Below are positions 12,455 through 54,600 of a stretch of DNA of 64,000 bases, piece after piece. The translations under genes and the position numbers were made by a program. The notes under the pieces are model-generated. The model ran no database searches and was not told the DNA's origin. It was given only the letters and a program-made list of their open reading frames with translations. Source of the DNA: a virus. The stretch is from IMG/VR virus record IMGVR_UViG_3300044844_000854, positions 1 to 64,000 of that record. One strand, 5' to 3'. Positions within the stretch are counted from its first letter, which is position 1. The number at the start of each line of letters is the position of its first letter.

Positions 12455-12892
12455 ATGTATAGAAGTTCAAAAACGATAGGCAATTTACCATGTGCCCACA
12501 GGAGATGGCGACACAACGGTCATTGTAAGTGGGTGCATGGGTACTCTAGGTCATTTGAATTTTGGTTTGAGTCTGATAATCTAGATGAGATGGGATTTGT
12601 TGTTGATTTTGGTGGATTAAAATGGTTACAAGAGTGGCTATTGTCTAAATATGATCATACATTACTGATAGATGAGAGTGATCCGTTGTTACCAATGTTT
12701 TTAGAATTGGAAGAAAAAGAAGGTTGCAAATTAACTGTCTATGAAAATGTAGGAATGGAAGGAAGTGCAGAGTATGTTGGTAGCTATGTAAAAGAAAAGC
12801 TAGAAGAATTATATGGTAACAGAGTAAGGCTAATCAGTGTAGAGTGTCGTGAGAATGACAAGAATAGTGGGGGGATATGGTATTCAAAGTAA
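12455..12892 (+). CDS. queD: 6-carboxy-5,6,7,8-tetrahydropterin synthase (QueD / 6-PTPS family)
   Basis: CAHR...HCKWVHGY Zn ligands and catalytic Cys, GFVVDFGGLK, YDHTLL, C-terminal E-N-x-x-N-S. Confidence 0.9.
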   Translation: MYRSSKTIGNLPCAHRRWRHNGHCKWVHGYSRSFEFWFESDNLDEMGFVVDFGGLKWLQEWLLSKYDHTLLIDESDPLLPMFLELEEKEGCKLTVYENVGMEGSAEYVGSYVKEKLEELYGNRVRLISVECRENDKNSGGIWYSK

Positions 12893-13278
12893 GAAAAAAG
12901 CGATTTACAGATAGTGGTCGTACAGGTAAGCAGGCGGTAGGTTACTTACAGGTATATAGTTTAGATACTGTAGATGGTGTAAAGTGGTTTAAGAAAAGGT
13001 TAGAGGCACTAAGGGTATGTGATGAGATGAATTTAGAGTATGTGAATTGTTACACGATAAAGAATGAGAAACCTGCTTATGTATTTCTAAATATGTTGAA
13101 TGGAAATTACACTATAGAGAAGATACCAATGAAGAGGACACAGAATTACAATAGGTCTAGGTGGGCATACCAAAGAGAAGTGTTGGTAAATAAGATGGGG
13201 GTACTTGGGTTTAATGTACAAGAGATGAGTACAGAAGAAATTAAAAAGTTAGTAGAGGAAAGAACAAATGAGAGTTGA
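12877..13278 (+). CDS. Hypothetical basic protein
   Basis: Overlaps both neighbours in an operon-like arrangement. Confidence 0.65.
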   Translation: MVFKVRKKRFTDSGRTGKQAVGYLQVYSLDTVDGVKWFKKRLEALRVCDEMNLEYVNCYTIKNEKPAYVFLNMLNGNYTIEKIPMKRTQNYNRSRWAYQREVLVNKMGVLGFNVQEMSTEEIKKLVEERTNES

Positions 13279-13771
13279 TTATGTGACTGTTCTAGGCTAC
13301 CCACAACCAAAAGAGAGAAGTGGTGTAGGAGCATATGGTAATTTATATAAGAAGAAAAAAACTCGTGATTATGAGCAAAGAGTAATGGAAGAATTTGCTA
13401 AATTACTTGGAGCATCTATCTATAAAGGTTTAATCTATGTAGATATTATTTGTATATTTAAGAGAACAAAAGAACTATCAAAACGGTATAAAAACGGAAC
13501 ATACAAATATGGAACTAAAAGAATAGCACATTTAATAAAACCTGATCATGACAATATAAGAAAGAGTGTCTTAGATGGATTTCAATGTTTTATGGATGGT
13601 GGTGATTGTAGAGTAATTGGTGGGCTCACAATGAAGTATTATGCAAACATAGTGAATGAAATTGAAGAAGAAGAGAGAGTGGTAATTAGAGTGGTAAGTG
13701 AATGTGATCTAGAACAATTACATGTCTATATGCTAGAGCCAAATAATCTAATAGAGTTACTAAACAAATAA
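13268..13771 (+). CDS. rusA: RusA-family Holliday junction resolvase
   Basis: GYPQPKER N-terminus, KPDHDNIRKSVLDG catalytic motif, D-x-x-V downstream. Confidence 0.85.
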   Translation: MRVDYVTVLGYPQPKERSGVGAYGNLYKKKKTRDYEQRVMEEFAKLLGASIYKGLIYVDIICIFKRTKELSKRYKNGTYKYGTKRIAHLIKPDHDNIRKSVLDGFQCFMDGGDCRVIGGLTMKYYANIVNEIEEEERVVIRVVSECDLEQLHVYMLEPNNLIELLNK

Positions 13772-13846: not shown

Positions 13847-15628
13847 ATGAGTGATAAGACAACAAAAGAAATTGTGGAAGAAAACAAACCAATAAGAACA
13901 ACTAGTCAAAATAAGGTTAAGGTGAACAATCCTAAGAAAGATACGGGGATTGTGCTGACAAAACAAGAGATAATGGATTTAGCAGAGAAATGTTACTTGT
14001 TTTGTGAAAAGGGTAGTGGTGTAGAACTATACCCATACCAAAAGGAATTTGGGCTTAGAATAATCCAATCATTGTTACTAGAAGATAATGCTGAAATCAC
14101 TGCATTGTTTAGTAGACAAAGTGGTAAGACAGAAACGGTATCAACAATCGTACCAGGATTATGTGTGATATTACCAATATTAGCTAACATACCTGACATA
14201 GGTGTTGACCGTAGAATAGGTAAATTTAAGCATGGGTTTTGGGTAGGTATCTTTGCCCCAAACTATGAACTTGCAGGCATCATGCATACTCGTATGAGTA
14301 AGAGAATAACATCTCAAGAGATGGAAGAGATACTAAAAGACCCTGAAATCAATATCAATTTAGATCATGGTAGGAAGGTGTTAAGGTTGCCAAATGGTAG
14401 CTATGTAGATTCAAATAGTGCAGGTCCACAGACAAGTATAGAAGGTAAAACCTATCATTTGATTATATGTGAAGAAACACAGGATATTAGTGATTATAAG
14501 ATTAGAAAATCAATACACCCAATGGCAGCAGCGACAGGGGGGACTATTATTAAGATTGGAACACCTGCCCCTAGAAAGTGTGAATTTTATGAGGCATGTG
14601 AGAGAAATAGAAAGAAACAATTAAATCAATCTAATAGTGAACTAAAATGTCATTTTGAATTTGATTATACTGTAGCAAGTAATTACAATCCTAGATATGC
14701 AAGTTATATAGAAATGGAAATTGAACGACTTGGGTTTGATAGTGATGACTTTAGAATGTCCTACAGGTTGCATTGGATTTTGGAAAGAGGTACATTTATA
14801 TCACCTGAACAATTAGCAGAATGTGGAATTAAGAAAAGGGATAAACTAACATCTCATGGTGTTAAAGGTGAGAAATTGGAATTCCACAGGTATGATTATA
14901 TTGTGAGTGGTGATAAACTAACGGATAATTTGGTAGCAGGTATAGATATTGGTAGATCATCTGATAGCACGATTGTGACTGTAGGAAAAGTATGGTGGGA
15001 AAATCCTGTATATCGTAGTGGTGAAGATAGGTATTATTGTCATGTCATGGATTGGTTGGAATTACAAGGTGATGATCATGAAAAACAATACCCACAGATT
15101 GTTGAATTTCTTTCTAGGTTTAATATAGGCTCAATTGTGATAGATGCAACAGGTAGAGGTGATCCTATTTATGATCGTTTAAATGCAGACTATTCAGAGA
15201 AAGACATAGCAGTATACCCATTTATATTTACAAATAAAAGCAAACATGAAGGCTACACCATTCTATACCAAGAACTTGTAGAAGGTAGACTTACATATCC
15301 TAGTGGTGAACATTGTGCTAAGCTAACTAAATGGCGAAGATTTATAAACCAATTCAATGACTTAGAGAAGAATTGGAAAGGTAAATATATGGCAATTGAA
15401 GCCCCTACAACTAAAAATCATAGAGTAATTGACAAGCCACATGATGACTATCCTGATAGTTTAATGTTATTATGTTGGCTTGTGCATAGAAAGAACTACA
15501 GTGTAGAAACATCTGACAGATCAATCTTTGCTTTAGGTGACGACACATATTCACGAATGAGAAATAATCGTGGTGGTATAACTAGAAGAAATACAAGTAA
15601 GGGTAGAGATCGTTGGGGTATTGAATAA
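13847..15628 (+). CDS. terL: Terminase large subunit
   Basis: LYPYQ, Walker A SRQSGKTET, Walker B LIICEETQD, GTP coupling motif, nuclease GIDIGRSSDST, DATGRGD, HDDYPDS. Confidence 0.95.
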   Translation: MSDKTTKEIVEENKPIRTTSQNKVKVNNPKKDTGIVLTKQEIMDLAEKCYLFCEKGSGVELYPYQKEFGLRIIQSLLLEDNAEITALFSRQSGKTETVSTIVPGLCVILPILANIPDIGVDRRIGKFKHGFWVGIFAPNYELAGIMHTRMSKRITSQEMEEILKDPEININLDHGRKVLRLPNGSYVDSNSAGPQTSIEGKTYHLIICEETQDISDYKIRKSIHPMAAATGGTIIKIGTPAPRKCEFYEACERNRKKQLNQSNSELKCHFEFDYTVASNYNPRYASYIEMEIERLGFDSDDFRMSYRLHWILERGTFISPEQLAECGIKKRDKLTSHGVKGEKLEFHRYDYIVSGDKLTDNLVAGIDIGRSSDSTIVTVGKVWWENPVYRSGEDRYYCHVMDWLELQGDDHEKQYPQIVEFLSRFNIGSIVIDATGRGDPIYDRLNADYSEKDIAVYPFIFTNKSKHEGYTILYQELVEGRLTYPSGEHCAKLTKWRRFINQFNDLEKNWKGKYMAIEAPTTKNHRVIDKPHDDYPDSLMLLCWLVHRKNYSVETSDRSIFALGDDTYSRMRNNRGGITRRNTSKGRDRWGIE

Positions 15629-17492: not shown

Positions 17493-17837
17493 ATGGATTT
17501 TAAGACATACCAAAAATTCACTAACACAACAGCTAAATACCCACAAGATCAAGCATTCCCATACCTTGCTTTAGGTTTAAATGGTGAGAGTGGTGAAGTA
17601 GCAGAAATCATTAAAAAAATCGTGAGAAAACAAATGTCATTCGATATTTTAAAAGATCAAACAATCCTAGAGCCTGATAGCTTACGACAACAAATTAAAG
17701 CAGAGCTTGGTGATGTATTATGGTATGTTGCACAAATCTGTGAGCAAGCTAATTTTGACCTTGAAGAAGTTGCACAAGCTAATGTTGACAAACTCACACA
17801 AAGAACAAAAGAAAATAATATCCAAAAATTAGATTAA
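17493..17837 (+). CDS. mazG: MazG-like nucleotide pyrophosphohydrolase
   Basis: LGLNGESGEVAEIIKK...ELGDVLWYVAQ...NVDKL. Confidence 0.9.
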   Translation: MDFKTYQKFTNTTAKYPQDQAFPYLALGLNGESGEVAEIIKKIVRKQMSFDILKDQTILEPDSLRQQIKAELGDVLWYVAQICEQANFDLEEVAQANVDKLTQRTKENNIQKLD

Positions 17838-19660: not shown

Positions 19661-22600
19661 ATGGCATCAAACTTTATACCATTTGATAAATTAGATTATG
19701 TATCTCAATTATACATTAAAAACAATCCTTTAGGTTATATTGAAGAACTTAAACAAAAGGGAATAAAGGTAGATACTTCTGACTTTTTAGCTACATATTC
19801 GGATAATATAGATAAAACAAAAATCCCTTCTGTTAAACGACTAATAGAGAAAGAGAGCAAACCTGTTGTTGACTATGATAAGATTAAGGATTTACTAAAA
19901 AACAATATCTCTAGTGAAATTAGAAAACAAATCGAACAGGATGTAAGATCAAAACTTGATAATTTAGATGATCTTAAAGCAAGGCTTGAAACTGAACGAT
20001 CTGATTTTGCTAGACGAGATTTACAAGAACAAATCACCTTAGGTACTAAATTAAGAGTATGGGAAATACAACAAAAATACATTCAGGATATGCTGGATAT
20101 TAAACTTAAAGCAAGACTAACATTCCTTGAAAAATCAGGTGCACTAGATACAATTGCAAAATTGATAGAGATTGAACAGGTAAAACAACCAGCACTTACA
20201 GAGAAACAAATCGTAAATCAAGCAATTACAGATAAGATTAAAAACACTATTCAAATTGTAGATGATGAACAATTACAAAAAGATACTAAAGATACAATCA
20301 AGGATAATACAAAGGCTATCAACTTAATAGATAAAGCAATACAAAACTTACAATATGATATACAACAAGCAAAACTTGGTAGGGGTATACCTAGAGCATA
20401 TTCATCTAGTGTAGGTTCATATATCACATTTTTAGAAACTAAAATATCAATCGAAGAACAGGGTAAAATTAGAATACAGGAAAGATTAGATCAAAACACT
20501 AAACTACTTAATCAGGTAAATGAAAGATTAAAAAATACAAAACCTGAGAGTTTAAAATTACCTAAGACTGTAGAAGAGCCTAAAGAAGATATAAAACAAG
20601 AGCCAATTGTAGATAAAAAAACGGAAAAGGAACAAAAGAGATTAGAACAATTAAAAGAGAAAGAAAGAAAAGCACAAGAGAAAATAGATAAAGAGAATAT
20701 CAAAAAACAAGAACTCTTAGATAAACAAGAAAAAGCTAAACTAGAAGAACAAGAACGACAAAAGAAATTACAAGATGCTGAACTAGAAAAACAAAGACTA
20801 AAAGAACAAAAAGATAAAGAACGACAACAAAAAAAACTAGAAAAAGAAAAACAAATTGAACTCAACAAACAAAGAAAAGAACAATTTGCTTTAGAACGAG
20901 AACAAAAACTATTTGGTAATCTTACATCTAAGCAGAAGATGGATTTTGATGGTGCAAATAGAGCTTATGCAGGGGCTATATCTCAAACACCTAAATATGA
21001 TAAGGATAAAAATTATAAACTTGTAGATGTTTTTGACCCTTCCGAATTTCCTAGCGATTTTGATACAAAGAAATTCGCTAAACAATCATCTTGGGTACAA
21101 ATACCACAAGGATATGCAAGGGTATATGATGGTAAGATTATTGCTATCTTTGGTGAAAACTTACCTACTAAAGAGAGTGCAATTGCATTTAAAGATTTAT
21201 TTAAGGTAGATATTCTTACACAATATGAAAAGAATAAACAACAATATGAAATTGAACAAAAACAAGCTAGAAGAGATGCACAGGATAAATGGCTACTTGA
21301 ACGAAAGAAAGAAAAACTAATTGAAAAGGGTATCACAGAAGTTAATGGTGTACCTGTTAAAGAGATAGATGATAAAACACAATTACCTGTTGTGCCATAT
21401 GATAGAGCAAATGAAGATCAAACATCTAAGGATAGACGACACTCAAAAATCATAGAAGTAAATGGTGTTGATGTAAAACTCTATTTAGATACAAAGAAAA
21501 ACCAATATACACTAATTGACCCTAGCGAATATAAAACGGATACAAAAAAACATAAAGTAGGCACAGAAAGACTTGCATTTGCAATTAAGGATAAATTGAG
21601 TGCATATAGGGGTAAATTAGATCAAGATGGTAATCAAATCTCTAAGGGTAGATTTAATGCAATCAAATACACTATTAAGAATAAAGAGAATAAACCTGTT
21701 GACCTTGATCTTAAAGTAAAATTGGAAGTATATAAACCTGAAGTCAAATCATACCAAAAACTAGAAGATTACAATAGACCCATAGACCTTGATGAGAAAT
21801 CAAAGATACAACTGATTAACAAACTTAAACTAGATAATGAAAAGGAATTTACAAGGGCTGTAGATAACCTATACACTGAAACAGGTGATAGTGAAGAACT
21901 AAAAAAAGCGGAAATTACAAAAAAACTAAACAATGAAATCCTAGCAACAGAAAAACATTTAGCAGATACTGTAAAACCTGCATTTAGAAAAGATATTAAA
22001 GATAGAAATCCATCACTAGATAATGATGCAATAGAACAACTTGTAGATAGTGAATTTGCTAAATTTATGCGATCTGCAATTACAAATGGTAAATTTATAG
22101 AGAGTGTCACTAAAAATACAGAACAATTACAATTATCTCATATAGAAGATGTAAAGACTAAGAATAAGAGCCATAAAAATCATGCTTATGAACAAGAACT
22201 TAAAGATACACTTAAAAACCTACCTTATGATGTAAAGCTATATAAAGGTATTGTTGTTGCAATTGTCTTAGATAAACCTGTTGATCCTGATGTTAAGAGA
22301 AAGCTACTCATAGACACACAATTGATTGTAAATAAACAATACCAATTGATGAGAGAAACTGATCCTACAAAGAGAGAAGAAATCATCAATTCAAATAAAC
22401 AGATCAATGATAACAATTATAAGGCTGAAATCTCTAGATCAATCAATGAATTTTACTTAAATAGACCTATCATTACACCTGAGATGAGAGCTACATTTGG
22501 TGAGAGAAAACAATCTCGTATCAACAAGCGATTAGATAGAAATCAAAATAGATCAATACCATTTTCTGAAACAGAAAAACAAAACTACATTGACTATTTA

Positions 22601-25600
22601 CTAGAACAACAAGCAATCAAAGAAGAAAATAGAGCATTTGCATTACAATATGAACAGGAACAACAAGATCGTATTCGTGAAAAGATAGCTGAATATGATG
22701 CAAGAATGAGAATGGAAAAGGAAGTAGAAGATAGTAAGAAACGAATTGCTACACGACTTGCGGATAAACTAAATGATAACATAGATAAACTTAAGGATAA
22801 TCTTAAAAACTCTAGTGATTTACTTGCTGAATTATCTAAGGTAGACCCACAAGACCCTAAAGCACTTAAACTAAATAATAAGGTGGTAGAGTATAAGGTA
22901 GAGAATATTACAAAACAATTAGAGAACACTATCCTTAAACGAACGATTGATAAATATGTAGATGTTGTTTCTAGCGATGGTTACTCAAATGAAATTATGC
23001 AAGAGTACTATAAATTTGATAGAGCAAGAAAGGTATTACAAAAAAACGGAATTAAAACAGATAGTATAAACAAAGACTTTGAAAATAGACTAAAAGAATT
23101 TCAAGAGATAGAGAAAGCACTATACCAAAAACCTGAAGATAGATCACCTGATCAAATCTACAATAGTATCAACAAGGGCGATACTACAATAGAAGATATG
23201 GATAAATTAAAGGGTACAAAATATGGATTAGCTTACCAACTATCTGCAATGAAGTACTCGCACAATTTCCAAGTAAATTCAGATATTGTTATACCTAAAT
23301 ATGAACTTGTTAATGCAAAAACTGAAATAGTCAAAGATAAAGATGGTAAAATTGTATATGACACTATACAGCTATTTGATATATTTGATAGACCTGAGAG
23401 AACACCTGATGGTGATTTTGTTTATAACTATGTGCCTAAAACTAGAACAATAAATGTGATAGAACAGGTGTGGCAAACAAATGATAAATCTACTGTAAAA
23501 TACGGCTCTAAAGAATACTATGATCTTAAACAGATATTTGTAAGAGATTTGATGTATGTAGATGCTAAAATCCAAGAAAATATAGCTAAAAACAAAGAGC
23601 CAGGTGAATACCTTACAAGAAAAAAAGAAGAACTGATGTCTAGCATTGCTAACATGACACCTACACAATCACCTTTTGAGATCAAGCAATTGGATAAAAA
23701 GGTAAATCAATTGATGGAGAACTACAATAAACTTAAATCCGAACTTGATAAGGTAGATGATAATCTTTCTGTAGAAGATGCACAGAAAATCTATGATGAA
23801 CTTAAAGATAAAACATATAAAACTAAGAATGGTAACTACTCTCTAGCTAAATTCTCAAGCTCTTCCGAAATTAGATCGGAATTGGTAACACAACAACATA
23901 CATTTGATACTATGGTAGACCTTGTAAGACGATCTATGGGTAAAAATGATTACAATGCAACCTATGATGATTTACTTGTTAAGAAATCTATGGAAGAAAA
24001 TAAAGAACTATTACGAATTTACAATGAAGATTTACCTAAAGCTAGAAAGCTAATTGCAAATACACTATCTTCTAGTGAAATCAATGATAGACTAATACAA
24101 CTTGATAGGGCAATGAATGATTTAGATGATATTCTACTTAATGCATATTCTGAAGGATCACTAGATGATGATGGTTTTATTACAGATAGATACCTAAGAC
24201 AAGATTATGATACCGTTCTTAAACGATTACTGACAGATGCACAAAAAACGGAAATAGATAAAAACCCCAACAAATTCTATGATGAAACCTTTAGACAACA
24301 AATACTCAAAGATGCAGATAAAAGAAGAGAAGAATATAGAGATAAACTAGAAGTAACTAAAGACGAGTATAAAAAAGGCTCTTATGATTTAGAATTAAGT
24401 GCAGCAAGACAACTTGTTAAGGAATATGGTAAATACATATCCGTTGAACACCTACTAATCAATGAAGATGCAACACTAAGAGAACAATTAAGAGATAGAA
24501 GAGCAACAGAAGAACGATTTGTAAAACAATACACACAAGACTATGAAAAGATACTATTTACAGAGAAAACCGTAAATGAACGACAAAAAAGAATAGATGA
24601 ACTAGAAGATCGCATCATTAAAAAGACTACTGAACAATTACAAGCAAAACTAAATGATGAACTTAAAGATTTAAACCAACGAAAACAAGAACTAGAGAAT
24701 AATAAGACTGAACTGATTGCAAAACAAGATACAAAATCAAACACAGATAATCTTAAAGATAAAGCAAGACAAATTGGTGTAAATAGTAGAGTAAGCATGT
24801 CTGCATCTCTAAAGGCACATATTACACCTGCACTTATCTTAGAAACAATACGAGCTACTGCTGGTGATAATTCTAAAGGTGGGGGTTTGATTGTGCTTAA
24901 AGATGATACAAAACCAATTCGCTTTAGATCAAGTGGTGAGGCAGGTAAGGGTAAATCATCTGAACAATTTAGAGCTGATTTTACAAGAGAACTACTTACA
25001 AAATTACTAGATAAAAACTTCCCTACAGATAGTAGACAAATTGCAATCCTACAAACACTACATGGACTTAAATCTGATGCAAAAGATATAGAGAAAGTGA
25101 TGTCTAAGGTTAAAGAACAAATCATAAACCAAATGATGCTTGCAGAAGAAACACTTGCTACTAGTAAAAAATCGAAAGATCAAAAACAAGGCTCACTAAA
25201 AGATGCAAGTTATACAAGTATGTTCACAAATGCATTTTATGAAACAATCCACAAAGAAATAGATGATAAATATAAAAAACTAAAAGCAGACAACAAACTA
25301 CAACACCTTAGTGATAAAGAAATTGCAGATAGCCAAAATCAAGAATTTGCAGAAAAACTAGCTGAACAAATGCAAAAACATATCACAGAGAATTTAAGAC
25401 CAATCTTAGATAGTGATAGCTCTACTATATCTAGAGTAATGGTAGATACTACTATGACTACAGGTATTACTAAACAAACAGGATTAGATGAACAACTTGT
25501 AAGAGATACACTTGCTGTAATTGGCACTGTTAAGAATGAAAAATTTGACGAATTTGTTAGGAATGTACTTGATAATGACATAGATAACATTGATCTTAAA

Positions 25601-28141
25601 AATGAACTAGGTGAGAGTGTTAAGAAACTTGATGAACAAATCAAACAATTAGGCGATACAATCAAAGATGCTACAAGAAAACACCAAGAAAATGTAGACA
25701 CTTTAGTCAATTCAAAAACATCTAAAAAAGCGGAAATGTTAAGAAAGAAGGCACTAGAAGATTTTAAAGAATTTGTTAAATCAAATAATCCAATCTCTTC
25801 TAAGCCTGCAATGTCATTCTCAGAGGCTATTTATAATGTAGGTGTACAGAAAGTAAATGAATACAATCTTAATGATAGAGCAAAGATTAATTCTGCACTT
25901 GAAAAAGGTAGACACCAAGCAAATATGCAAGCTAACTTTGATACATATAATGAAATAAGAGAAAATGAACTATCTCAAGAATTTGATACCTTAGCTAAAA
26001 TCATTTTTGATGATGGTAAAGTGTACCTAAACCCCACAATCAATACAGAGTCAATTAGTCAACTTAGGAAACATGATCTAAAGGGTAGATTTGGTATCAA
26101 TCAAAAAATGGAAATGTATAGTGAATTACTAAAACAAGCAACTAAAGCACTATATGTACCAGGAAAACCAGGTAGACCTAAAAAAGGTACACTACCTGAT
26201 GCAAAGATTACTGAACTTGATCAAATGAGATCAATCATAGAAAAAATGGGGGATTATATACAGACTAATATATCACCTGCAATGATCTCTAGCTATGATA
26301 ATCAGCTTAAACTTATGAATGATAATTATGGTGGTATTATTGGATTATTACAATTATATGGTGATGGTAGTGGTAGAATGCCATATGTAGATGAAGAACG
26401 ACTTTTACTTGCAAACAAGAAACTACAACAGGTAAATAAACTTGTATATGATAAAATCTTTAGCAAAATCCTTGCAACATTTATGGCAGTACCTAATCTT
26501 ACGGATACAGAAGCAATGAACTTAGCTAATATCTCTGCCCAAAAACTAATATCACAGATGCTAGATAGTGATCCTGGTAAATTATACAATGCAACAGATA
26601 CACAAATTAAAGATATGACATCATCTATCTTTGTAACACTAGAAAATCTTGCAAGCTATAAAGATGAAAATCAAGCTAAAGCAGTAAAAGATACACTTAG
26701 AAAGATAAGAGAGTCAAAAACTGATATACAGGCTCTATTCTTACAAAATGATGCACTTTCTTTAGAAATATCAGATACAATCAATCAATTATGGGACGAT
26801 AAATTTGATTATGATCAAAGAGAAAACCCAATGGTTATGGATAGCATTGAATTTAAACGACTATTAAGATCATACCATAGCTTATCTATTGAACATGATT
26901 TTACAAAGAGAGAAACAATCAAATTCTTTGATAAAGCTAAAGATGAATATGTTAGATTTATGACATCTTATATAGATGATAGTGTTTTACAAGATATGTA
27001 TAATCCTAAGAATGCAAATGATCCCAACGACTCAAGATTGATTAAAGATTTGGTACAAAGAGATGGTAATTTAATATTCAATTATCAAGGTGAAGAAATC
27101 ATACTTGGCGACTCTACAGGTGGATATATAGACGATAGAGATATAAGACAAACTTATTCAGCAGACACACTACTTACATATGCAGATAAAAAACAGAACT
27201 ATACAATTATGCAAAATACAAAGAATATGACTGATTTAGCTAATACAATCTACACTGTATTTGATACAGGTGCTTTATCCTTTACTTCTTTAGGTGTAGA
27301 AGAAAGTCAACTTAAAAAAACTAGAGAACTTATGACAAATGCAATCACTAGATTTGCAAGTGAATTTGTAAATAACATTCTTTCTAGTAATGAAGATATA
27401 ATTAGAGCAACTACAATCTATGCACTAGAAAAAAGCGGAAAGAAATACACCAAAGAACAAGTAGATGAACTTGTAAATACTCAAGTGTTAGATATGATGG
27501 GTAGATATCAAAGTGATCTTATGGATAACATGAAAGATTTTATGGGTAACTTAAACTCTTGGGTAAATAATCGCATTGAAACTATAGCTCAACTTAACAA
27601 TTATAATGATGATGATAGAAGAAGAGTTATTGCAAGTGATAAAACAAACTTCCTTAGAACATTCCTTTTAGGTGAAGATCCAAAAATGCCTGGATTACTT
27701 GATCTTATGACAGGTAATAAATTTAAGACTAAAGACTTAAACACAATTATCAACCTACAACAATCTCAAATTGTAAGAGAAACAATGGTCAATATGTATA
27801 AAGCTACAGATGTAAGGGTAGTGCAATGGCGACTTGACCCATCTCACAAATGGGAAGGTGGTAAGGAAATCTGTGAAATCTACTCTTTAGGCAACAATCT
27901 TACACCTGAAGATAAACTACTACTATCTCAAAGTGGTTACCCTACAGCAGGTTTATATAGTGTATCTCTCATTCCTAAAAGGACACATGCAAACTGTAGG
28001 TGTTATACATATCCTATTGTAGATGGCACAACAATGAATAATTTAGAACAAGCATTTACTAATTATCGTACTCAAGATCAATATTTACTATCTATGGCTA
28101 ACATTATTGTAGCTGAGGATAGTGGTGAAGTGCCATTTTAA
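19661..28141 (+). CDS. Giant (2826 aa) coiled-coil protein with a C-terminal MuF/SPP1-gp7-like head morphogenesis domain
   Basis: C-terminal VVQWRL..H....ICE...GLY...IPKRTHANCRCYTYP resembles the MuF HPNCRC motif; sits in the canonical MuF position after the portal. Confidence 0.75.
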   Translation: MASNFIPFDKLDYVSQLYIKNNPLGYIEELKQKGIKVDTSDFLATYSDNIDKTKIPSVKRLIEKESKPVVDYDKIKDLLKNNISSEIRKQIEQDVRSKLDNLDDLKARLETERSDFARRDLQEQITLGTKLRVWEIQQKYIQDMLDIKLKARLTFLEKSGALDTIAKLIEIEQVKQPALTEKQIVNQAITDKIKNTIQIVDDEQLQKDTKDTIKDNTKAINLIDKAIQNLQYDIQQAKLGRGIPRAYSSSVGSYITFLETKISIEEQGKIRIQERLDQNTKLLNQVNERLKNTKPESLKLPKTVEEPKEDIKQEPIVDKKTEKEQKRLEQLKEKERKAQEKIDKENIKKQELLDKQEKAKLEEQERQKKLQDAELEKQRLKEQKDKERQQKKLEKEKQIELNKQRKEQFALEREQKLFGNLTSKQKMDFDGANRAYAGAISQTPKYDKDKNYKLVDVFDPSEFPSDFDTKKFAKQSSWVQIPQGYARVYDGKIIAIFGENLPTKESAIAFKDLFKVDILTQYEKNKQQYEIEQKQARRDAQDKWLLERKKEKLIEKGITEVNGVPVKEIDDKTQLPVVPYDRANEDQTSKDRRHSKIIEVNGVDVKLYLDTKKNQYTLIDPSEYKTDTKKHKVGTERLAFAIKDKLSAYRGKLDQDGNQISKGRFNAIKYTIKNKENKPVDLDLKVKLEVYKPEVKSYQKLEDYNRPIDLDEKSKIQLINKLKLDNEKEFTRAVDNLYTETGDSEELKKAEITKKLNNEILATEKHLADTVKPAFRKDIKDRNPSLDNDAIEQLVDSEFAKFMRSAITNGKFIESVTKNTEQLQLSHIEDVKTKNKSHKNHAYEQELKDTLKNLPYDVKLYKGIVVAIVLDKPVDPDVKRKLLIDTQLIVNKQYQLMRETDPTKREEIINSNKQINDNNYKAEISRSINEFYLNRPIITPEMRATFGERKQSRINKRLDRNQNRSIPFSETEKQNYIDYLLEQQAIKEENRAFALQYEQEQQDRIREKIAEYDARMRMEKEVEDSKKRIATRLADKLNDNIDKLKDNLKNSSDLLAELSKVDPQDPKALKLNNKVVEYKVENITKQLENTILKRTIDKYVDVVSSDGYSNEIMQEYYKFDRARKVLQKNGIKTDSINKDFENRLKEFQEIEKALYQKPEDRSPDQIYNSINKGDTTIEDMDKLKGTKYGLAYQLSAMKYSHNFQVNSDIVIPKYELVNAKTEIVKDKDGKIVYDTIQLFDIFDRPERTPDGDFVYNYVPKTRTINVIEQVWQTNDKSTVKYGSKEYYDLKQIFVRDLMYVDAKIQENIAKNKEPGEYLTRKKEELMSSIANMTPTQSPFEIKQLDKKVNQLMENYNKLKSELDKVDDNLSVEDAQKIYDELKDKTYKTKNGNYSLAKFSSSSEIRSELVTQQHTFDTMVDLVRRSMGKNDYNATYDDLLVKKSMEENKELLRIYNEDLPKARKLIANTLSSSEINDRLIQLDRAMNDLDDILLNAYSEGSLDDDGFITDRYLRQDYDTVLKRLLTDAQKTEIDKNPNKFYDETFRQQILKDADKRREEYRDKLEVTKDEYKKGSYDLELSAARQLVKEYGKYISVEHLLINEDATLREQLRDRRATEERFVKQYTQDYEKILFTEKTVNERQKRIDELEDRIIKKTTEQLQAKLNDELKDLNQRKQELENNKTELIAKQDTKSNTDNLKDKARQIGVNSRVSMSASLKAHITPALILETIRATAGDNSKGGGLIVLKDDTKPIRFRSSGEAGKGKSSEQFRADFTRELLTKLLDKNFPTDSRQIAILQTLHGLKSDAKDIEKVMSKVKEQIINQMMLAEETLATSKKSKDQKQGSLKDASYTSMFTNAFYETIHKEIDDKYKKLKADNKLQHLSDKEIADSQNQEFAEKLAEQMQKHITENLRPILDSDSSTISRVMVDTTMTTGITKQTGLDEQLVRDTLAVIGTVKNEKFDEFVRNVLDNDIDNIDLKNELGESVKKLDEQIKQLGDTIKDATRKHQENVDTLVNSKTSKKAEMLRKKALEDFKEFVKSNNPISSKPAMSFSEAIYNVGVQKVNEYNLNDRAKINSALEKGRHQANMQANFDTYNEIRENELSQEFDTLAKIIFDDGKVYLNPTINTESISQLRKHDLKGRFGINQKMEMYSELLKQATKALYVPGKPGRPKKGTLPDAKITELDQMRSIIEKMGDYIQTNISPAMISSYDNQLKLMNDNYGGIIGLLQLYGDGSGRMPYVDEERLLLANKKLQQVNKLVYDKIFSKILATFMAVPNLTDTEAMNLANISAQKLISQMLDSDPGKLYNATDTQIKDMTSSIFVTLENLASYKDENQAKAVKDTLRKIRESKTDIQALFLQNDALSLEISDTINQLWDDKFDYDQRENPMVMDSIEFKRLLRSYHSLSIEHDFTKRETIKFFDKAKDEYVRFMTSYIDDSVLQDMYNPKNANDPNDSRLIKDLVQRDGNLIFNYQGEEIILGDSTGGYIDDRDIRQTYSADTLLTYADKKQNYTIMQNTKNMTDLANTIYTVFDTGALSFTSLGVEESQLKKTRELMTNAITRFASEFVNNILSSNEDIIRATTIYALEKSGKKYTKEQVDELVNTQVLDMMGRYQSDLMDNMKDFMGNLNSWVNNRIETIAQLNNYNDDDRRRVIASDKTNFLRTFLLGEDPKMPGLLDLMTGNKFKTKDLNTIINLQQSQIVRETMVNMYKATDVRVVQWRLDPSHKWEGGKEICEIYSLGNNLTPEDKLLLSQSGYPTAGLYSVSLIPKRTHANCRCYTYPIVDGTTMNNLEQAFTNYRTQDQYLLSMANIIVAEDSGEVPF

Positions 28142-29125: not shown

Positions 29126-29854
29126 ATGCCTGTAACGACAGAAAATACCCAAATGACACAGAATGATGACAAGACACAAGACAATTCTCTTAATCAAGTA
29201 AATTCTTCTCTAGCTAATCCATCTTCTTCCAATGTCCAAGATACACTTGATGCTATCGAAAAGGCTAGGAAACAAGAAAAGGATAAGCTATATCAAAAAA
29301 TGAAGGAACTTGAAGATAAGAATAAACAGTTTGAGGACTTTTTAAATAAAGAAAAGCAAAAAGCTGAAGAATATGCAAACCAACTTCTAAAACAAAAAGA
29401 ACAACAAATGTCTGAAGAAGAAAAGATCAAGCAAACCGTAGACAAACTTGTGCAACAAAATGACTACCTTTCAAAACAACTTGAAGAAGTAGCAAGAAAT
29501 GCTCAAGAAAGATTACGAGAGAGTGAACTTAAAGCATATAAAGCACAAGCACTTGCTAAAAATAATGTTCTCATTCCTGAGTTAGTCAGTGGCAATTCTG
29601 TTGATGAAATTGATAATGCAATTAAACTAGCTAAGGAAAAAGAACAATTATTACTCAAACAAGCTGAAGAAAGAGTAAGAGCAGAAGTTGTGTCTACACT
29701 ACCTAAGCCATCTCAATCAGCATCTATTCCTAATAGTCCATCAAATTTGATTGATCCTAGAAAGAAATATGAGATTGCAAACTTGAGCCCTAGTGATTTC
29801 GCTAAATATAAAGCGGATGCCTTGCAAAAAGCTAGAACAGGTTTTACAAGATAA
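29126..29854 (+). CDS. Capsid scaffolding protein
   Basis: EKARKQEKDKLY coiled coil, IPELVSGNS.DEID..I..AK, C-terminal ISPSDFAKYK-type helix; immediately before the MCP. Confidence 0.8.
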   Translation: MPVTTENTQMTQNDDKTQDNSLNQVNSSLANPSSSNVQDTLDAIEKARKQEKDKLYQKMKELEDKNKQFEDFLNKEKQKAEEYANQLLKQKEQQMSEEEKIKQTVDKLVQQNDYLSKQLEEVARNAQERLRESELKAYKAQALAKNNVLIPELVSGNSVDEIDNAIKLAKEKEQLLLKQAEERVRAEVVSTLPKPSQSASIPNSPSNLIDPRKKYEIANLSPSDFAKYKADALQKARTGFTR

Positions 29855-37472: not shown

Positions 37473-40400
37473 ATGGCAAATTATAACATAGCAATCAGTG
37501 TAGATACTGCAGGGGCAATACAATCACTAAATGCACTAAAAACATCACTAGATAATACACAAAAAGCACTAGACAATACTGAAAACGGTGCAAAAGATAC
37601 TGCTAAATCTATGGGTAATGCATTTGGTGATGTTGCTCAACAATTACAGAACTTTGATCAAGGTATTACAAGAATTGTTGAAAACTTTCTTAAACTTAAA
37701 GGTGTTGCAGATGAATTACTTAATAAATCCCTAGAACAATTTAAGAAAAATGAACAAGAAAGACTATCTTTAGATGTTGTGCTTAATACTCAAGGTGCAT
37801 TTGGTGATATGCAGAAATTTAAAGATAAAATATTGCCTACAATGAGCTTAAATATCTCTAATGATCTTGCTAAGGCTAAGGCTCTTGCAAATTCAGATCC
37901 CAAATATATGAAGGATTTTGATAGCTTAATTAAATCTATGCTATTTATAGGTGCTAAACAAGCAGATGTAGAGAACTTTAAAATTGAATATGCTAGTAAA
38001 ACAGGTACTGATTTAAACAATTTTATCAATGAAACATTAAGTAATGCACAACAATCTAGAATTGATATGGCTAAAAAAGCAGATACAGAAATTCAAAGAT
38101 TATACCAAACGACTAAATTCTCTCAAGGTCAAATTACAGCGATGTTCACTGATATGATCTCTAAGGGTATTGATCCAGGTGTACTTACAGAAAAGAATGT
38201 AAAAACTAAAGATGGTAATGTTAGTATGCTTGATAAAATCGTACAATTAGGTGCTACATTTACAGATGAACTTGGTGGAGCAGATACTGCATTACTTGAG
38301 GCAGGCAAACTTGTTCACCAAGTATTAAATGTAGCAAGTCCAGGTTACCAAACTGATTTTGCAGAAAATACACAACATTTAGGCACTTACCTTGATCAAA
38401 TGATTACTGCATTTAATAAGACACCTCTTACAATTAAGAATGTAGGCGATGTGTTGGTTAGAAATATGGGATTAAATCAAAAATTCTATGCGACTACATT
38501 CCCTGAATTTCTAGCGATGTCAGGTAAATTACTAAATGCAAAATCAGGTGCTGAAACAGGTGAATATTTACATGCATTCCAAAGAGGTTTTATCTTAATG
38601 CAACAAAATATTGATAGGCAAATTGAAGAAAAACAAGTTGAATTACAAACACAAGGTAAGCAAGGATTAACACTTCAACCTAAAGTTAGAAAAACTGCAA
38701 AAGCATTATCCACTGCAAATCTACAAAATGATGAGATTTTAAAACTTACAAATGCATCAGGATTTAAGCAATTACTAAATCAAATCATGTTAGATGAGAA
38801 TACTACCACTCAATTAAGTCAACTTGCAGGTACAGGTCAATTTAATCAAATACCAGCACTAATTGAAACATTTGCTAAAGGTAAAGGGATTACACTTGAA
38901 CAAGGCACAATGAACTCTATGTCACAGGTTATGCTTGGACTTAAAGGTGAAATGGATAGTTTAAGCAAAGGTCTACAATCACTTACACCTGAATTAGCAG
39001 CAGAACTTGTTCAATCAAATGTATTAAAAGATTTAGGTAATGGTGTATATGAACTAATTAGGGGTATAGGTGAAAACTCTAAGATTGTTGAAGAAAATGG
39101 TAAGAAATTCTATTCAGGTAAATCTATTGCTAATCAAGGTACTCAATATAAAATTGGCGAGCAAATGCCTATTATTGCTAAAGGTGTTTCAGGCAATTAT
39201 TCGTATGCTGATTTTGCAGGTAATCAAGAACTATTTATACAGAAACAATTAGATGAATTAGGTGCTCAATCATTTGCATACAATTTATTTGGTAATGATT
39301 TACTACTATCCTTCTTTAACTTGGTTACTTTAGGTGGTAATTTCCAAGAAATCTTATCAGGTATACAATCAGGTGTATTTACATTAGATGAGTCATATAA
39401 ACAATTTGAACAGACACTATCCAATGCAATACAAATTAATGAAGGTCTTATGGATGGTATGTTTAGAGCATTCTCAAACAATGTAGGTTTTGTAAATCTA
39501 TCTTTTGAGAAGCTAAAAACTACCTTAATGTCATCTTACTTAAATATAGATAAGGAAACTCGTTTAATGTCAGATGGTGCAACATCAAATGTTCTCTTAA
39601 TCTTATCAACAATAGGTAAGGTAGGTGCAATAATTGGTAGTGCATTAGCTTTATCTGCAAGTTATTCCTTGATTGTGCCTTATCTCACTATGAATGCTTT
39701 AGGTGAAAAAGTAGGTATGCTTGCTAATCTAAAAACTAGATTTATTGAGATGATACCATTCTTAAAATACCTTAGCATAGGTGCACTTGTTGTTGTAGGT
39801 CTTGCATTTGCATTCCAAAAACTATTTGCAAACGGCACTGATTTAGGTAAAAAATTCCAAGATATAGGCGGAATATTCAATAACTATATCATACCTGCAT
39901 TTGTAACAGGTAAAAAGAAAACTGATGGTGCATCTAAAGCAGTTATTGTTCTACAAGATGCAGCAATATCTATTAGAAGTGTATTGATAGGATTTATGGA
40001 CGGATTTTCTGATGCATTACTTGTAGCTGTTAAAGGTGTTACATTCTTCTGTATGCTTATTGGTTCTCTTATTGGATTGCTTTTTGGTGCATCTATGGGA
40101 CATGAAGAAGTATCAAAATATATTGGATATGTAGGCTATGCTTTAGGTATTTTACTACCACTCATCTTTTTATATAACAAGCTAACGGCTATAACTGCAT
40201 TCATCACTACATTCGCTACTAAGAGAGTATTTATATTTTTTGCAATTATTGGTGGACTTATCGCCATATTCTCACTTCTTCAAGAGTATGGCTTAGTTGT
40301 TGTAGGTATTGTTGGATTACTTGCTCTTGGATTTGGATTTTTTGGTAAAGCTACTTGGGGAGCAATGATACCTTTACTCAAATTTATTGGTATTGTTCTT

Positions 40401-40835
40401 GTAATGGTTGCAGGTATTGATCTTCTCATACAATTATTTTTAAAACTAGCAGAAGTAGCAGGTATCAAAACTGTAGCAGCATTTGGTGATGCTTATAATA
40501 AACAAAAAGAAAATCTTATGGCAAAAGGTAAAGAAATTATGAACTCTGTATCTACTGTTCCTGATATGGGTATGGGAAATATGGAATTACCTAAAGAATT
40601 GAATATATCACCTGATCAATTATCATCAAAATCCTTAGAAGTGCCAAGTGGTGCAGATATGATTGATTTTAAAGGATTGCCACAATTACAGTCATCTTCA
40701 CCTGTCACTGTAAATATTACACTTAAAGAAGCTATTATAGAGCCTACAAGTGATGTATTCTTAAAGAAAGTAGCTAATACACTTGTACCACATATTCAAG
40801 ATGCACTTAATAGAAACAATACATCTATTGGATAA
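37473..40835 (+). CDS. Tape measure protein
   Basis: 1120 aa, helical, with several hydrophobic segments in the C-terminal third; follows the chaperone. Confidence 0.85.
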   Translation: MANYNIAISVDTAGAIQSLNALKTSLDNTQKALDNTENGAKDTAKSMGNAFGDVAQQLQNFDQGITRIVENFLKLKGVADELLNKSLEQFKKNEQERLSLDVVLNTQGAFGDMQKFKDKILPTMSLNISNDLAKAKALANSDPKYMKDFDSLIKSMLFIGAKQADVENFKIEYASKTGTDLNNFINETLSNAQQSRIDMAKKADTEIQRLYQTTKFSQGQITAMFTDMISKGIDPGVLTEKNVKTKDGNVSMLDKIVQLGATFTDELGGADTALLEAGKLVHQVLNVASPGYQTDFAENTQHLGTYLDQMITAFNKTPLTIKNVGDVLVRNMGLNQKFYATTFPEFLAMSGKLLNAKSGAETGEYLHAFQRGFILMQQNIDRQIEEKQVELQTQGKQGLTLQPKVRKTAKALSTANLQNDEILKLTNASGFKQLLNQIMLDENTTTQLSQLAGTGQFNQIPALIETFAKGKGITLEQGTMNSMSQVMLGLKGEMDSLSKGLQSLTPELAAELVQSNVLKDLGNGVYELIRGIGENSKIVEENGKKFYSGKSIANQGTQYKIGEQMPIIAKGVSGNYSYADFAGNQELFIQKQLDELGAQSFAYNLFGNDLLLSFFNLVTLGGNFQEILSGIQSGVFTLDESYKQFEQTLSNAIQINEGLMDGMFRAFSNNVGFVNLSFEKLKTTLMSSYLNIDKETRLMSDGATSNVLLILSTIGKVGAIIGSALALSASYSLIVPYLTMNALGEKVGMLANLKTRFIEMIPFLKYLSIGALVVVGLAFAFQKLFANGTDLGKKFQDIGGIFNNYIIPAFVTGKKKTDGASKAVIVLQDAAISIRSVLIGFMDGFSDALLVAVKGVTFFCMLIGSLIGLLFGASMGHEEVSKYIGYVGYALGILLPLIFLYNKLTAITAFITTFATKRVFIFFAIIGGLIAIFSLLQEYGLVVVGIVGLLALGFGFFGKATWGAMIPLLKFIGIVLVMVAGIDLLIQLFLKLAEVAGIKTVAAFGDAYNKQKENLMAKGKEIMNSVSTVPDMGMGNMELPKELNISPDQLSSKSLEVPSGADMIDFKGLPQLQSSSPVTVNITLKEAIIEPTSDVFLKKVANTLVPHIQDALNRNNTSIG

Positions 40836-51634: not shown

Positions 51635-54600
51635 ATGACAGCTACACACAATACTAGCAAACAAAACAGTCATAAGCCTTATAAGAACTATACACAAGTA
51701 GCTTTCCAACAAGGCAAACCTGTATTAGATTATGAACTTAATGATGCACAATCAGTAGTTTTACAACAAATTACAAGTCACCTACAAACACTTGAACAAT
51801 TTTGTGGTATAGAAACATCACCTAGTGAATTTGCTATTGTTCCATTATCCTTTGCAGATCGTGGTAAGAATGATAGAAATATTTCAAACTTTGGTATCAC
51901 TCTTGGTAGATTACCTACTAAATTTGGTGTGATTGATACTACTCACCTAAAGGAAGTTGGTAAAGGTAATACTATTGCTTTTGACTACCATAGGTTAGAA
52001 TTAAATAACATTCATACAACAGAAGATCATGTTTATGAAAACTACCTACTTAAAGGTAAAATTACAGGATATGATAGTGCAACAAGAGTAATTACAGATG
52101 AACATAAGGACTTTTCTAAGACTCACCTTGATTTAGTTCAAACTACTAAGCAATACACTTTATCACATTCAGATACAGATAGTGTTACACTAAATGTAAT
52201 CTCTAATGGTGCAGATATTGTATTTACTAGTTGTGCAAATTCAGGTTTAAATGGAACTAGAAGATCAATCTTATCTATCCCTACAAGTAATTCTATCTAT
52301 ATTGGACTTCCAATTGGTCTTACAGTAGGCGATGAATATGTAATTATCCCCAAGAACAACTTTAGTGCAATTAAAAAATCATTTGATGATGAAACAACAT
52401 TTACAAACACAATTTCAGGTCAAGAGGCTAATCCCATTGTAATCACTTATGTTCAATCATTCATTGAAGATATTGCAAGTGAAGAAGATGAAGAAATTAA
52501 ATTAAGTGCAATTGGTATGGAAACTACTCACCGTAAACAACTTAGATGGTGTGTTAGAACTTCTAGAGCATTTTTAAGCTCAACTGATTTAGCAAAACTT
52601 GTATTACAAGAAAACAATGTAAATGTAGGTGTATATTCTAAATATTCAAGAGAATTACTTGGTGCATATACACCATTTGAACAACCTGTAGACACATTCT
52701 TAGACACATTCTTAAACACACAATCTGAACTACAAGAAAACGGGGATTTAAAAACACCTTTAGCAACACAGGTAATGCCTATATCATTAAAACTAGGCAA
52801 TTTAGAAGCACCTGAATTATCTCAAAGCTATAACAATGTATACCAAAGCAAAGGTATCTCTAGTCAATCCTTCTTTGTTAAGAATAGAGCAAGTGTATTA
52901 TCTATCAAAACACTAAAGGCAGTTCTATTACAGGTATTACAAGGCAACACATCACTTAATACAGAAGATGCTTTAGGTAGTGAATTTGACATCTCTATTC
53001 TACAGGTACATACTGCATCATCTAAAAGAGAAGGAAATAGCATAGTACGAAATGATACTCTTTCACCTTATTTGTATGCAGGTTTTGTGTATGAAACACC
53101 TACTGTAGCTAATACACCTATGGCTATCCCAATGTTTAACCCATTTAAACAAGGTGTACCTGAAGGTTTTCCTGTAATTGTAGATGGTTACTTCTACCAA
53201 CCACCTAGAATTTTTCAATCACAATCAGAAATCTCTACAGAATTATTGCAAGCTAAATCAATGACTTATTCTTTAGGTTATATGCCTGAAAGTGATGATT
53301 TGATTACTTCACTTATGCCATTTAGTGAAAACACAGTATTCCAACCATTCACATTTAGATCAATTGTTCAAAGACAAAATAGTGATCTACAAATTACACC
53401 TATTGCATTTGAAACACTTGGTCAAAAATTAGCATTTAATGATATTTCTGCCATTGCTATGCTAGGTATTGGTAGTGCTTTCTCTATCAGTAATAACACC
53501 ATATTTGACGGATTTACTACTATACCAACTATTTCTGCAACAGGCTTTGATGGAATTGATGTAGGTTTTTCTGGTCAATTATCCACAACACAAAATACTA
53601 TCTTAGGGCTAAACGAATATAGTAAGAATGTATTTGGTGGTATTGTTTTCTCAAATCCAATTCTTGCAGGTGATATTCCTAGCATTGCAACTCAAATCAA
53701 TCACAAAGATAGCACTGATCAAACTTTGGTAGGTTATTATCTTCCTAAGGCAGTTGAAGATCAAGATGGTAATCAAACTCACTTTGTTAGCTATAATGAT
53801 AAAAAACTAGGTTATTCTCTCTATAAAGATGAACAAACTTTAAGAATGAGAGAATTTGAAAATGGTATTTTACAAGCATCTGTTTTTGCAAATACATTCA
53901 ATTTAAGAAAATTAGCAATCAAAACACAAGCATCACTAGAAGCAGATTTATTTACTCTTGATGTTCCACATGCTTTAGATATTTTTAGATCAGGATCAAT
54001 TCAATCTGCTATTTCTCAAGCACAGTATGACAATGCAAATACTCTTTTAGACACTAATCCTGAATATAGTTCTATTGTATATAATGCTATTCAGTTATCT
54101 GCATTCTCTGAAATTGCATTATCTTATGGATCTTCAATATCTGCTTATTTTGGTGTATCTCAATTCCCTGCAATTAGATCATTTCTATCTAATTCAAAGA
54201 TTATGGGTAACTTTTCATCAAGTGCTAATCCACTTAGTAATCTATTTAGTAGCAATATCAATGCATTACCTAGTTTACCATTCACTTTTTGGGGTAATAC
54301 TAACACACTAATCTCATCAAGTAATATTGGCAATTTATCTACTACTACTGTTGATTTAGGTACTGGTACATTTGATGTTGAATCTGTAAATTATCAATCA
54401 GGCAGTGTTTCTTTACAGTCTACTTATCGTGCATTTGATAGATCATACATTCAAAGTAATGATGACTTAGATCAATTACATGATACTCTTTTAGATCATG
54501 AATTAGGTGCTTGGGCAGTAAAGCGAATTTCATTTGATCAATTCCATACAAACACTTCTTTAGATGCATTACAATCTACATCTACATTTAGCAATAGAAA

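Follow-up and report, generated by a model that had tools for sequence, protein, structure and literature searches.

A giant gene behind the portal gene of an uncultured freshwater phage ends in a predicted, divergent MuF-like module

Analyzing positions 1 to 64,000 of the IMG/VR virus record IMGVR_UViG_3300044844_000854 (hereafter the window, 64,000 nucleotides), we found that a single open reading frame (ORF) of 2,826 amino acids (aa), located directly behind the portal gene, is a real gene that is selected along its whole length. Judged by where the gene lies, its predicted fold, the order of its motifs and relatives in PHROG families annotated as 'head morphogenesis', its C-terminal end is a MuF-like (SPP1 gp7-like) module, and the 2,546 residues ahead of this module form a conserved extension. 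The source record is a 104,574-bp virus genome from freshwater that is rated as complete by CheckV and belongs to an uncultured phage. MuF-type proteins are the best-supported route for loading extra proteins into tailed-phage capsids, and nearly all of the described loads are C-terminal and can be recognized as toxins or enzymes. By analogy with such proteins, we think it probable, though well short of certain, that the giant protein is a minor head protein with a C-terminal portal anchor that is carried inside the capsid and probably ejected as accessory cargo.

Evaluating the giant ORF as a gene, we found an ATG start with an AAGGA ribosome-binding site ~10 nucleotides 5' of it, and a 2,826-codon open frame would not arise by chance because, by our estimate from base composition (32% GC), ~8% of random codons would be stops. 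The gene is intact in two further IMG/VR contigs (L005 and L006) at 96% aa identity, and comparison with these copies revealed a ratio of nonsynonymous to synonymous substitution rates (dN/dS) of 0.22 overall and 0.05–0.37 per 400-codon slice, which indicates purifying selection. Two database proteins proved colinear and almost gap-free with the giant protein, one at 98% identity (UFOVP755_63, uncultured Caudovirales phage) and one at 78% (P0003), and an exhaustive HMMER search added a 3,042-aa giant (P0004) that matches aa 429–1158 at 34% identity and aa 1358–2786 at 26%. The P0004 cluster has one member on a 104,176-bp contig. Given colinear relatives at 78% and ~30% identity and contig sizes of ~104 kb, we interpret the giant architecture as old and as kept in at least two diverged ~104-kb phage lineages. 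The ENA contig that encodes P0003 has 207,014 bp, roughly double the ~103.5 kb that genomes of this group measure, and may be an assembled concatemer instead of a jumbo phage. Neither megablast nor tblastn found a match among 50,697 phage records, nor did a search of P0006 against phages; locus scans of viral contigs recovered the two 96% relatives and nothing else, and scans of metagenome and genome contigs found nothing. Within the genome itself, we found neither internal repeats in the giant protein nor a paralogue of it elsewhere. The features of the giant gene are as follows.

19661 to 28141, plus strand: giant ORF with ATG start, 2,826 aa (~325 kDa), 8.1% of the 104,574-bp genome
19661 to 20944, plus strand: variable N-terminal region, aa 1–428, the most divergent part (50–64% identity to P0003, dN/dS 0.37)
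20561 to 20920, plus strand: K/E-rich stretch, aa 301–420, with 32 K+R and 29 D+E per 100 residues
20945 to 23134, plus strand: conserved block 1, aa 429–1158, 34% identity to P0004 and 83–89% to P0003 over most of its length
23732 to 27298, plus strand: conserved block 2, aa 1358–2546, colinear with P0004 at ~26% identity
27299 to 28021, plus strand: MuF-like (SPP1 gp7-like) module, aa 2547–2787, predicted to consist of a helical bundle and, after it, a small alpha/beta core
27827 to 27877, plus strand: clade motif W-x5-H-x4-G-x-E-x-C-E (W2723, H2729, G2734, E2736, C2738, E2739), invariant in 36/36 aligned members
27986 to 28003, plus strand: HANCRC, aa 2776–2781 (H2776, C2779, C2781), an invariant H-x2-C-x-C that corresponds to the canonical MuF C-R-C

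Searching exhaustively with the last 326 residues (phmmer), we recovered 72 proteins; two of them, without the motif, appear spurious. Most of the remaining ~70 relatives are 230–400 aa long, match at their own C-termini and usually contain exactly three cysteines, and in most of the small relatives the H-x2-C-x-C lies ~10 residues from the C-terminus; the giant protein continues for ~45 poorly conserved residues past its CxC motif. Leaving the giant protein out, we built a profile from 35 relatives of ~300 aa, which matched it once, at aa 2547–2787 (117 bits, E 7e-38), and this is the sole MuF/SPP1-gp7-like module of the genome. Besides the two motifs, G2764 and P2772 are invariant across the 36 aligned members, and H2776, C2779 and C2781 together with H2729 and C2738 plausibly make up a putative zinc site. 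Comparison with PHROGs placed 12 of these 36 in phrog_1657 (best 9e-13), 6 in phrog_4728 ('head morphogenesis') and 3 in phrog_115 ('minor head protein'), and the last 226 residues of the giant protein weakly matched phrog_1657 ('head morphogenesis'; E 0.005, 17 bits, and E 0.0018 in the genome search). An AlphaFold2 (AF2) model of the last 326 residues reached a predicted local distance difference test score (pLDDT) of 74 and a predicted template modeling score (pTM) of 0.66. A Foldseek search of BFVD with this model gave 12 matches at E<=1e-3, the top 50 being nearly all minor capsid, head morphogenesis or MuF-like proteins; the best non-self match was the capsid morphogenesis protein of Listeria phage LP-018 (E 5.6e-6, template modeling scores 0.51/0.62), and portal–MuF, zeta toxin and ADP-ribosyltransferase fusions were the known fusion types among the matches. 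Some members of the clade are themselves extended at the end opposite to the giant's extension: four proteins of ~1,200 aa (P0014, P0025, P0036 and P0071) have an N-terminal module and a C-terminal SNF2-family helicase (SNF2-rel_dom, Helicase_C, ResIII), making them head-anchor plus DNA-motor fusions, and the C-terminal extensions of P0046 (1,074 aa) and P0011 (618 aa) match nothing in Pfam.

The strongest evidence is synteny, which we evaluated by comparing the surrounding genes with those of three IMG/VR contigs (L007, L008 and L011) retrieved with a small clade member. In the window, these surrounding genes are the following.

13847 to 15628, plus strand: large terminase subunit (TerL), 593 aa (phrog_2, 1.3e-24), 40–49% identical to TerL of L007, L008 and L011
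17856 to 19574, plus strand: portal protein (PF05133, SPP1_portal, 1.2e-19; phrog_64, 1.5e-30), 34–40% identical to the portals of L007, L008 and L011
28223 to 28693, plus strand: 156-aa ORF directly downstream of the giant ORF, with an acidic C-terminus and a CCC triplet (EEECCCEDG)
29126 to 29854, plus strand: 242-aa scaffold-like ORF, 27–33% identity to its counterparts by position in L007 and L008
29911 to 30903, plus strand: major capsid protein (phrog_1357, 1e-52), 53–57% identical to L007 and L008 and 44% to Bacillus phage BCD7
33966 to 35798: tail sheath, downstream of further head and tail genes

The three contigs share the order TerL (40–49% identity), portal (34–40%), a MuF-like gene of 237–311 aa, scaffold-like ORF (27–33%), major capsid protein (38–57%), two conserved ORFs and sheath, and their small MuF-like genes are 32–37% identical to the giant over the core. 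With the same order and the same slot, the giant gene is therefore the positional orthologue of the ~300-aa gene. The small-MuF contigs are 35–50 kb long and 33–43% complete according to CheckV, which projects to genomes of ~100–116 kb. Among cultured phages, those whose capsid proteins come closest are Bacillus phage BCD7 (94 kb, 44% identity), Streptomyces phage BRock (112 kb) and Bacteroides phage BS162P1; they run from portal to scaffold-like to capsid gene with no MuF gene in the slot. As relatives of similar size carry either the small gene or none, we interpret the slot as accessory and the extension as not tracking genome or capsid size, which argues against a role as scaffold, core or size ruler.

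As to membership in the MuF family, the curated models weigh against it and profile-to-profile comparison lends it weak support. Neither the whole protein nor its C-terminal pieces matched PF04233, PF06152 or NCBIfam models at E<=1, PF04233 and PF06152 also found nothing in a six-frame search of the genome or in any of the 36 relatives, and NCBIfam returned nothing relevant for the C-terminus plus nine small relatives. Aligning the clade with hhalign to an SPP1 gp7 family alignment, in which every member carries PF04233, gave only a weak match (E 0.0015, probability 17%) with 113 columns in register. Core-only alignments brought the R..E..R, W...H..G, Pro and CxC blocks all into register at E 0.006–0.016 only, with a ~20-residue insertion in the clade, and across all alignments the profile-to-profile (HMM-HMM) values ranged over E 0.0015–0.016 and probabilities of 3–17%. 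Single-sequence hhalign against SPP1 gp7 gave nothing informative, cross searches of HMM against sequence between the clade and the SPP1 gp7 family were insignificant, and a PDB sequence search with the clade profile gave nothing. Comparing the C-terminal model with the PDB (Foldseek) and with VIA-align wide returned generic helical bundles only (Z<=10), and no solved MuF protein structure for comparison turned up in the PDB sequence and fold searches.

On the other side of this balance, MuF3 and MuF4 were likewise defined from context, fold and motif order, the context being a place right after the portal gene (PMC5576092); here the giant ORF begins at 19661, leaving a gap of 86 nucleotides to the end of the portal gene at 19574. 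Because the curated models fail and context, fold and motif order agree, we assign the module to a divergent MuF-like clade and not to the family as the curated models draw it; its identity thus rests on fold, context and motif order, as read from sequence comparison and a predicted structure. The original prediction, made from the DNA sequence alone, had placed a 2,826-aa ORF between portal and scaffold, which is borne out by the portal matches upstream and, by position, by the scaffold-like ORF downstream, with the 156-aa ORF in between. Its assignment of the C-terminus to MuF stands by position, fold, motif order and PHROG relatives and falls by PF04233, PF06152 and NCBIfam; having named a C-terminus without MuF profile matches as the finding that would speak against it, the prediction is, for the curated models, literally contradicted.

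Turning to the extension (aa 1–2546), we interpret it as conserved, selected, soluble, nearly Cys-free and, in a low-confidence model, mostly helical, with no recognizable domain found. Composition of the giant protein is 11.9% K, 9.0% D, 8.1% E, 6.5% N and 6.0% Q with a net charge that is about neutral, and its only cysteines are C2738 (within KEICEIY), C2779 and C2781, so that the predicted K/E/D/Q-rich character, the lack of Cys ahead of the C-terminal domain and the HANCRC were all borne out, the last at exactly the claimed positions, 27986–28003. No membrane segment was found (highest 19-residue Kyte-Doolittle mean 0.9). The variable region at aa 1–428 had no BLAST match in P0004, and the K/E-rich stretch within it is probably a long charged helix or spacer; farther along, conservation of block 2 peaks at ~aa 2201–2275 (GIIGLLQLYGD...). 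An AF2 model of aa 420–1619, computed from a 4-sequence alignment, had low confidence (pLDDT 48) and contained ~57% helix, 10% strand and small beta islands, and the earlier description of the protein as largely helical thus roughly holds, for one region and at this confidence, with strand present as well. Foldseek of this model against BFVD found only itself, and VIA-align gave only coiled-coil-like matches (Z<8).

Sequence searches with the extension were equally unproductive. Pfam and PHROGs gave only noise for the whole protein and for nine overlapping 400-aa pieces, Pfam gave nothing on P0003 and P0004, a PDB sequence search with a profile of the four giants gave nothing, and the ESM Atlas had no usable match to aa 420–1160 or aa 2150–2546. 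A word-based homologue search revealed no shorter proteins sharing aa 420–1160, and the partial genomes of the small-MuF relatives held no stand-alone homologue of the extension. Evaluating motifs, we rejected the sole GxxxxGK[ST] (P-loop candidate, aa 1759) and the sole DxDxD match (aa 1971), neither of which is conserved in P0004. The giant protein also lacks the cargo-leader motif (W/F)xE..H.RD..GRF. The giants have no conserved P-loop, DxDxD, HExxH, or HD or K-x7-YG type motif, and only three His are invariant across the four of them, such that the claim of the original prediction that no catalytic motif is recognizable holds across family, structure and motif searches.

To connect these observations to a possible function, we considered what is known of SPP1 gp7, which binds the portal oligomer and enters the procapsid in few copies (PMC6316719; PMC5576092) and is dispensable for assembly (PMC6316719). 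Delivery together with the DNA has been proposed for MuF fusions and polyvalent proteins (PMC5512222), and the large helical cargo proteins of crAss001 must, as proposed, unfold in part on their way out (PMC10172136). By analogy with SPP1 gp7 and the MuF fusions, the C-terminal module would dock on the inner face of the portal ring during procapsid assembly, and a few copies (at most ~12) would be enclosed with the DNA packaged around them, each ~325-kDa copy displacing, by our estimate, the volume of a few hundred bp. At infection, the protein would leave through the portal and tail channel, partly unfolded, and the extension would act as accessory cargo at or just after genome entry. A protein that lacks Cys outside its zinc-like core, is helical and has no membrane segment would fit, short of proof, one that has to unfold and refold. 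As to what the extension might do, we lean with low confidence to a binding or structural job, for instance to hold or protect the end of the DNA or to engage a component of the host or of a defense, over an enzymatic one, and a capsid-building role is unlikely. The proposal of the original prediction, an internal protein anchored at the portal and ejected along with the DNA, thus stays the preferred interpretation; nothing we found spoke specifically for its conduit, shield or polyvalent-effector variants.

Some points count against an ejected, portal-anchored cargo. Virion presence, portal binding and ejection are all argued by analogy for an uncultured phage, and so is the entire function of the extension, whose sole structural model has low confidence (pLDDT 48). 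Further, cargo lies C-terminal to MuF in known fusions, this clade included, whereas here a 2,500-aa load is N-terminal and may not be compatible with docking on the portal. The order had been described as reversed, and so it is relative to MuF toxins and to the SNF2 fusions of the same clade, but a C-terminal MuF is not unique, having a precedent in portal–MuF fusions (PMC7302621) and in portal-annotated Foldseek matches.

A bolder interpretation of the same protein, which we regard as unlikely, would make the extension a new capsid-borne machine of undescribed folds that arose once and was kept in at least two deeply diverged ~104-kb freshwater phage lineages, for example one tethered to the portal that threads out with the genome or in front of it and either chaperones or shields the DNA end or, in a phage with a contractile tail, bridges the cell envelope. 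We hold it to be similarly doubtful that the giant is a cryptic polyvalent effector, a set of several diverged enzymatic or anti-defense domains whose injection would serve to seize control of the host or counter its defenses. Genes for such proteins typically lie with the late virion genes, and MuF is a frequent component (PMC5512222), SNF2 helicase fusions occur in the same clade, and two long blocks of the giant are conserved to ~26–34% identity, all of which would favor an effector; however, Pfam, PHROGs (whole protein and 400-aa pieces), the PDB sequence profile, the Atlas and Foldseek/VIA found no domain, and the missing P-loop, DxDxD and HExxH, the three invariant His in 2,826 aa and the charged, helical composition speak against it.

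It is more doubtful again that the giant stays in the capsid as a resident structure, either a core or inner body or a scaffold-like organizer of DNA spooling or capsid assembly. A long, helical, charged protein that is Cys-free outside its MuF module and has no enzyme domain would suit such a role, as would a gene adjoining scaffold-like and capsid genes and an anchor near the portal, but relatives with orthologous capsids (~94–116-kb genomes) fill the slot with a ~300-aa version or leave it empty, the phage has a separate gene that is scaffold-like, and SPP1 gp7 is dispensable for assembly (PMC6316719). Finally, it is very improbable that the module is not MuF at all but a small, unrelated zinc module that stands behind the portal gene by chance, in a protein that is no head component, as the missing matches to PF04233, PF06152 and NCBIfam, the weak hhalign result and a W-to-H spacing and extra Cys unlike canonical MuF would allow, given a Foldseek list specific to MuF-like and minor capsid proteins, relatives that fall in PHROG head-morphogenesis families, a post-portal position conserved across diverged phages and all four motif blocks in the order of SPP1 gp7.

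Beyond the giant gene, the phage is a contractile-tailed, sheath-bearing myovirus, and its head module has several further features. The 156-aa ORF behind the giant gene matches no family and lacks a homologue in relatives with the small MuF-like gene, and its product could be a partner of the giant protein. The label 'scaffold-like' for the 242-aa ORF reflects its position before the capsid gene and its conservation, with no family match. Upstream, a MazG-like pyrophosphatase (phrog_229, 9e-35) lies between terminase and portal at 17493–17837, and a QueD-like 6-pyruvoyl-tetrahydropterin synthase (phrog_2389, 1e-32) and a RusA-like resolvase (12455–12892 and 13268–13771) lie just upstream of the terminase gene, which means that the packaging module is interspersed with genes for metabolism and modification. 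TerL has 593 aa in the window and 907–932 aa in relatives (L007:1326-4124 and L008:1237-4029, and also L014:6428-9151 of Bacteroides phage BS162P1), and the window TerL aligns to residues ~30–100 and ~427–879 of the relatives' TerL. This split points to a ~330-aa insertion in the relatives, which may be an intein or an inserted domain. In the tail region, two very long ORFs lie on the plus strand, one of 1,120 aa (37473–40835) at the position expected for the tape measure and one of 2,032 aa (51635–57733) that may be a baseplate or fiber protein. Outside the window and far from the head module, a match to ClpP-like protease (PF00574, 9e-26) at genome positions 100200–100598 contains one TAA.

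To summarize what is unusual here, the giant protein combines membership in a clade that the curated models miss, an N-terminal load, and ~290 kDa of conserved sequence without known fold or function that takes up 8% of the genome. If it is indeed incorporated into virions, it would widen the known range of MuF-anchored loads and offer a defined entry point to an uncharacterized class of internal virion proteins. For annotation, pipelines that rely on PF04233 and PF06152 under-call MuF-like genes.

Compared with known systems, the giant would work most like a cargo protein of the capsid with a MuF anchor. With SPP1 gp7 and Mu gpF (PF04233; MuF1-4, Jamet et al. 2017, PMC5576092), it shares a gene immediately after the portal gene, a module of ~250–300 aa with helices and then a small core that has C-x-C at its end, the motif order R..E..R, W...H..G, P, CxC, and a predicted fold that matches annotated MuF-like proteins. 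It differs in the clade signature W-x5-H-x4-G-x-E-x-C-E ... H-x2-C-x-C with its third invariant Cys, which curated models miss, and in the 2,546 extra residues that precede the module, as against ~300 aa in total for gp7. With MuF toxins and effector fusions (Jamet 2017; EFV toxin; VIP2-MuF of Microbacterium phages, PMC7302621), it has in common a MuF-type anchor joined to a large extra polypeptide in the head gene module. Those proteins have an N-terminal MuF, a recognizable C-terminal toxin or enzyme and often a downstream immunity gene, in phages that are mostly temperate, whereas the load of the giant is N-terminal, ten times larger and without a recognizable domain. Polyvalent proteins (Iyer et al. 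2017, PMC5512222) resemble it in giant size, location among virion late genes, a MuF-type module and proposed delivery with DNA, but are defined by 2–15 identifiable effector domains (metallopeptidase, ArdC, ART, SNF2, methylase and others), none of which we found in the giant.

Very large capsid-carried proteins offer the remaining parallels. Like the RNA polymerase carried in N4 virions (vRNAP; ~3,500 aa, PMC13434306) and the crAss001 cargo (PMC10172136), the giant is very large and mostly helical and would be carried in the capsid; the N4 and crAss proteins are expelled partly unfolded. Microbacterium cluster EK phages likewise have virion-associated proteins of >4,400 aa with few informative domains (PMC7302621). 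Sequence similarity to these giants is lacking, and the features of podovirus ejection proteins (T7 gp14-16, N4 gp50 and crAss cargo), namely membrane segments and RNA polymerase motifs, were not found in the giant. N4, crAss and EK phages are podoviruses with different loading modes, whereas the giant comes from a sheath-bearing myovirus and carries a MuF-type anchor.

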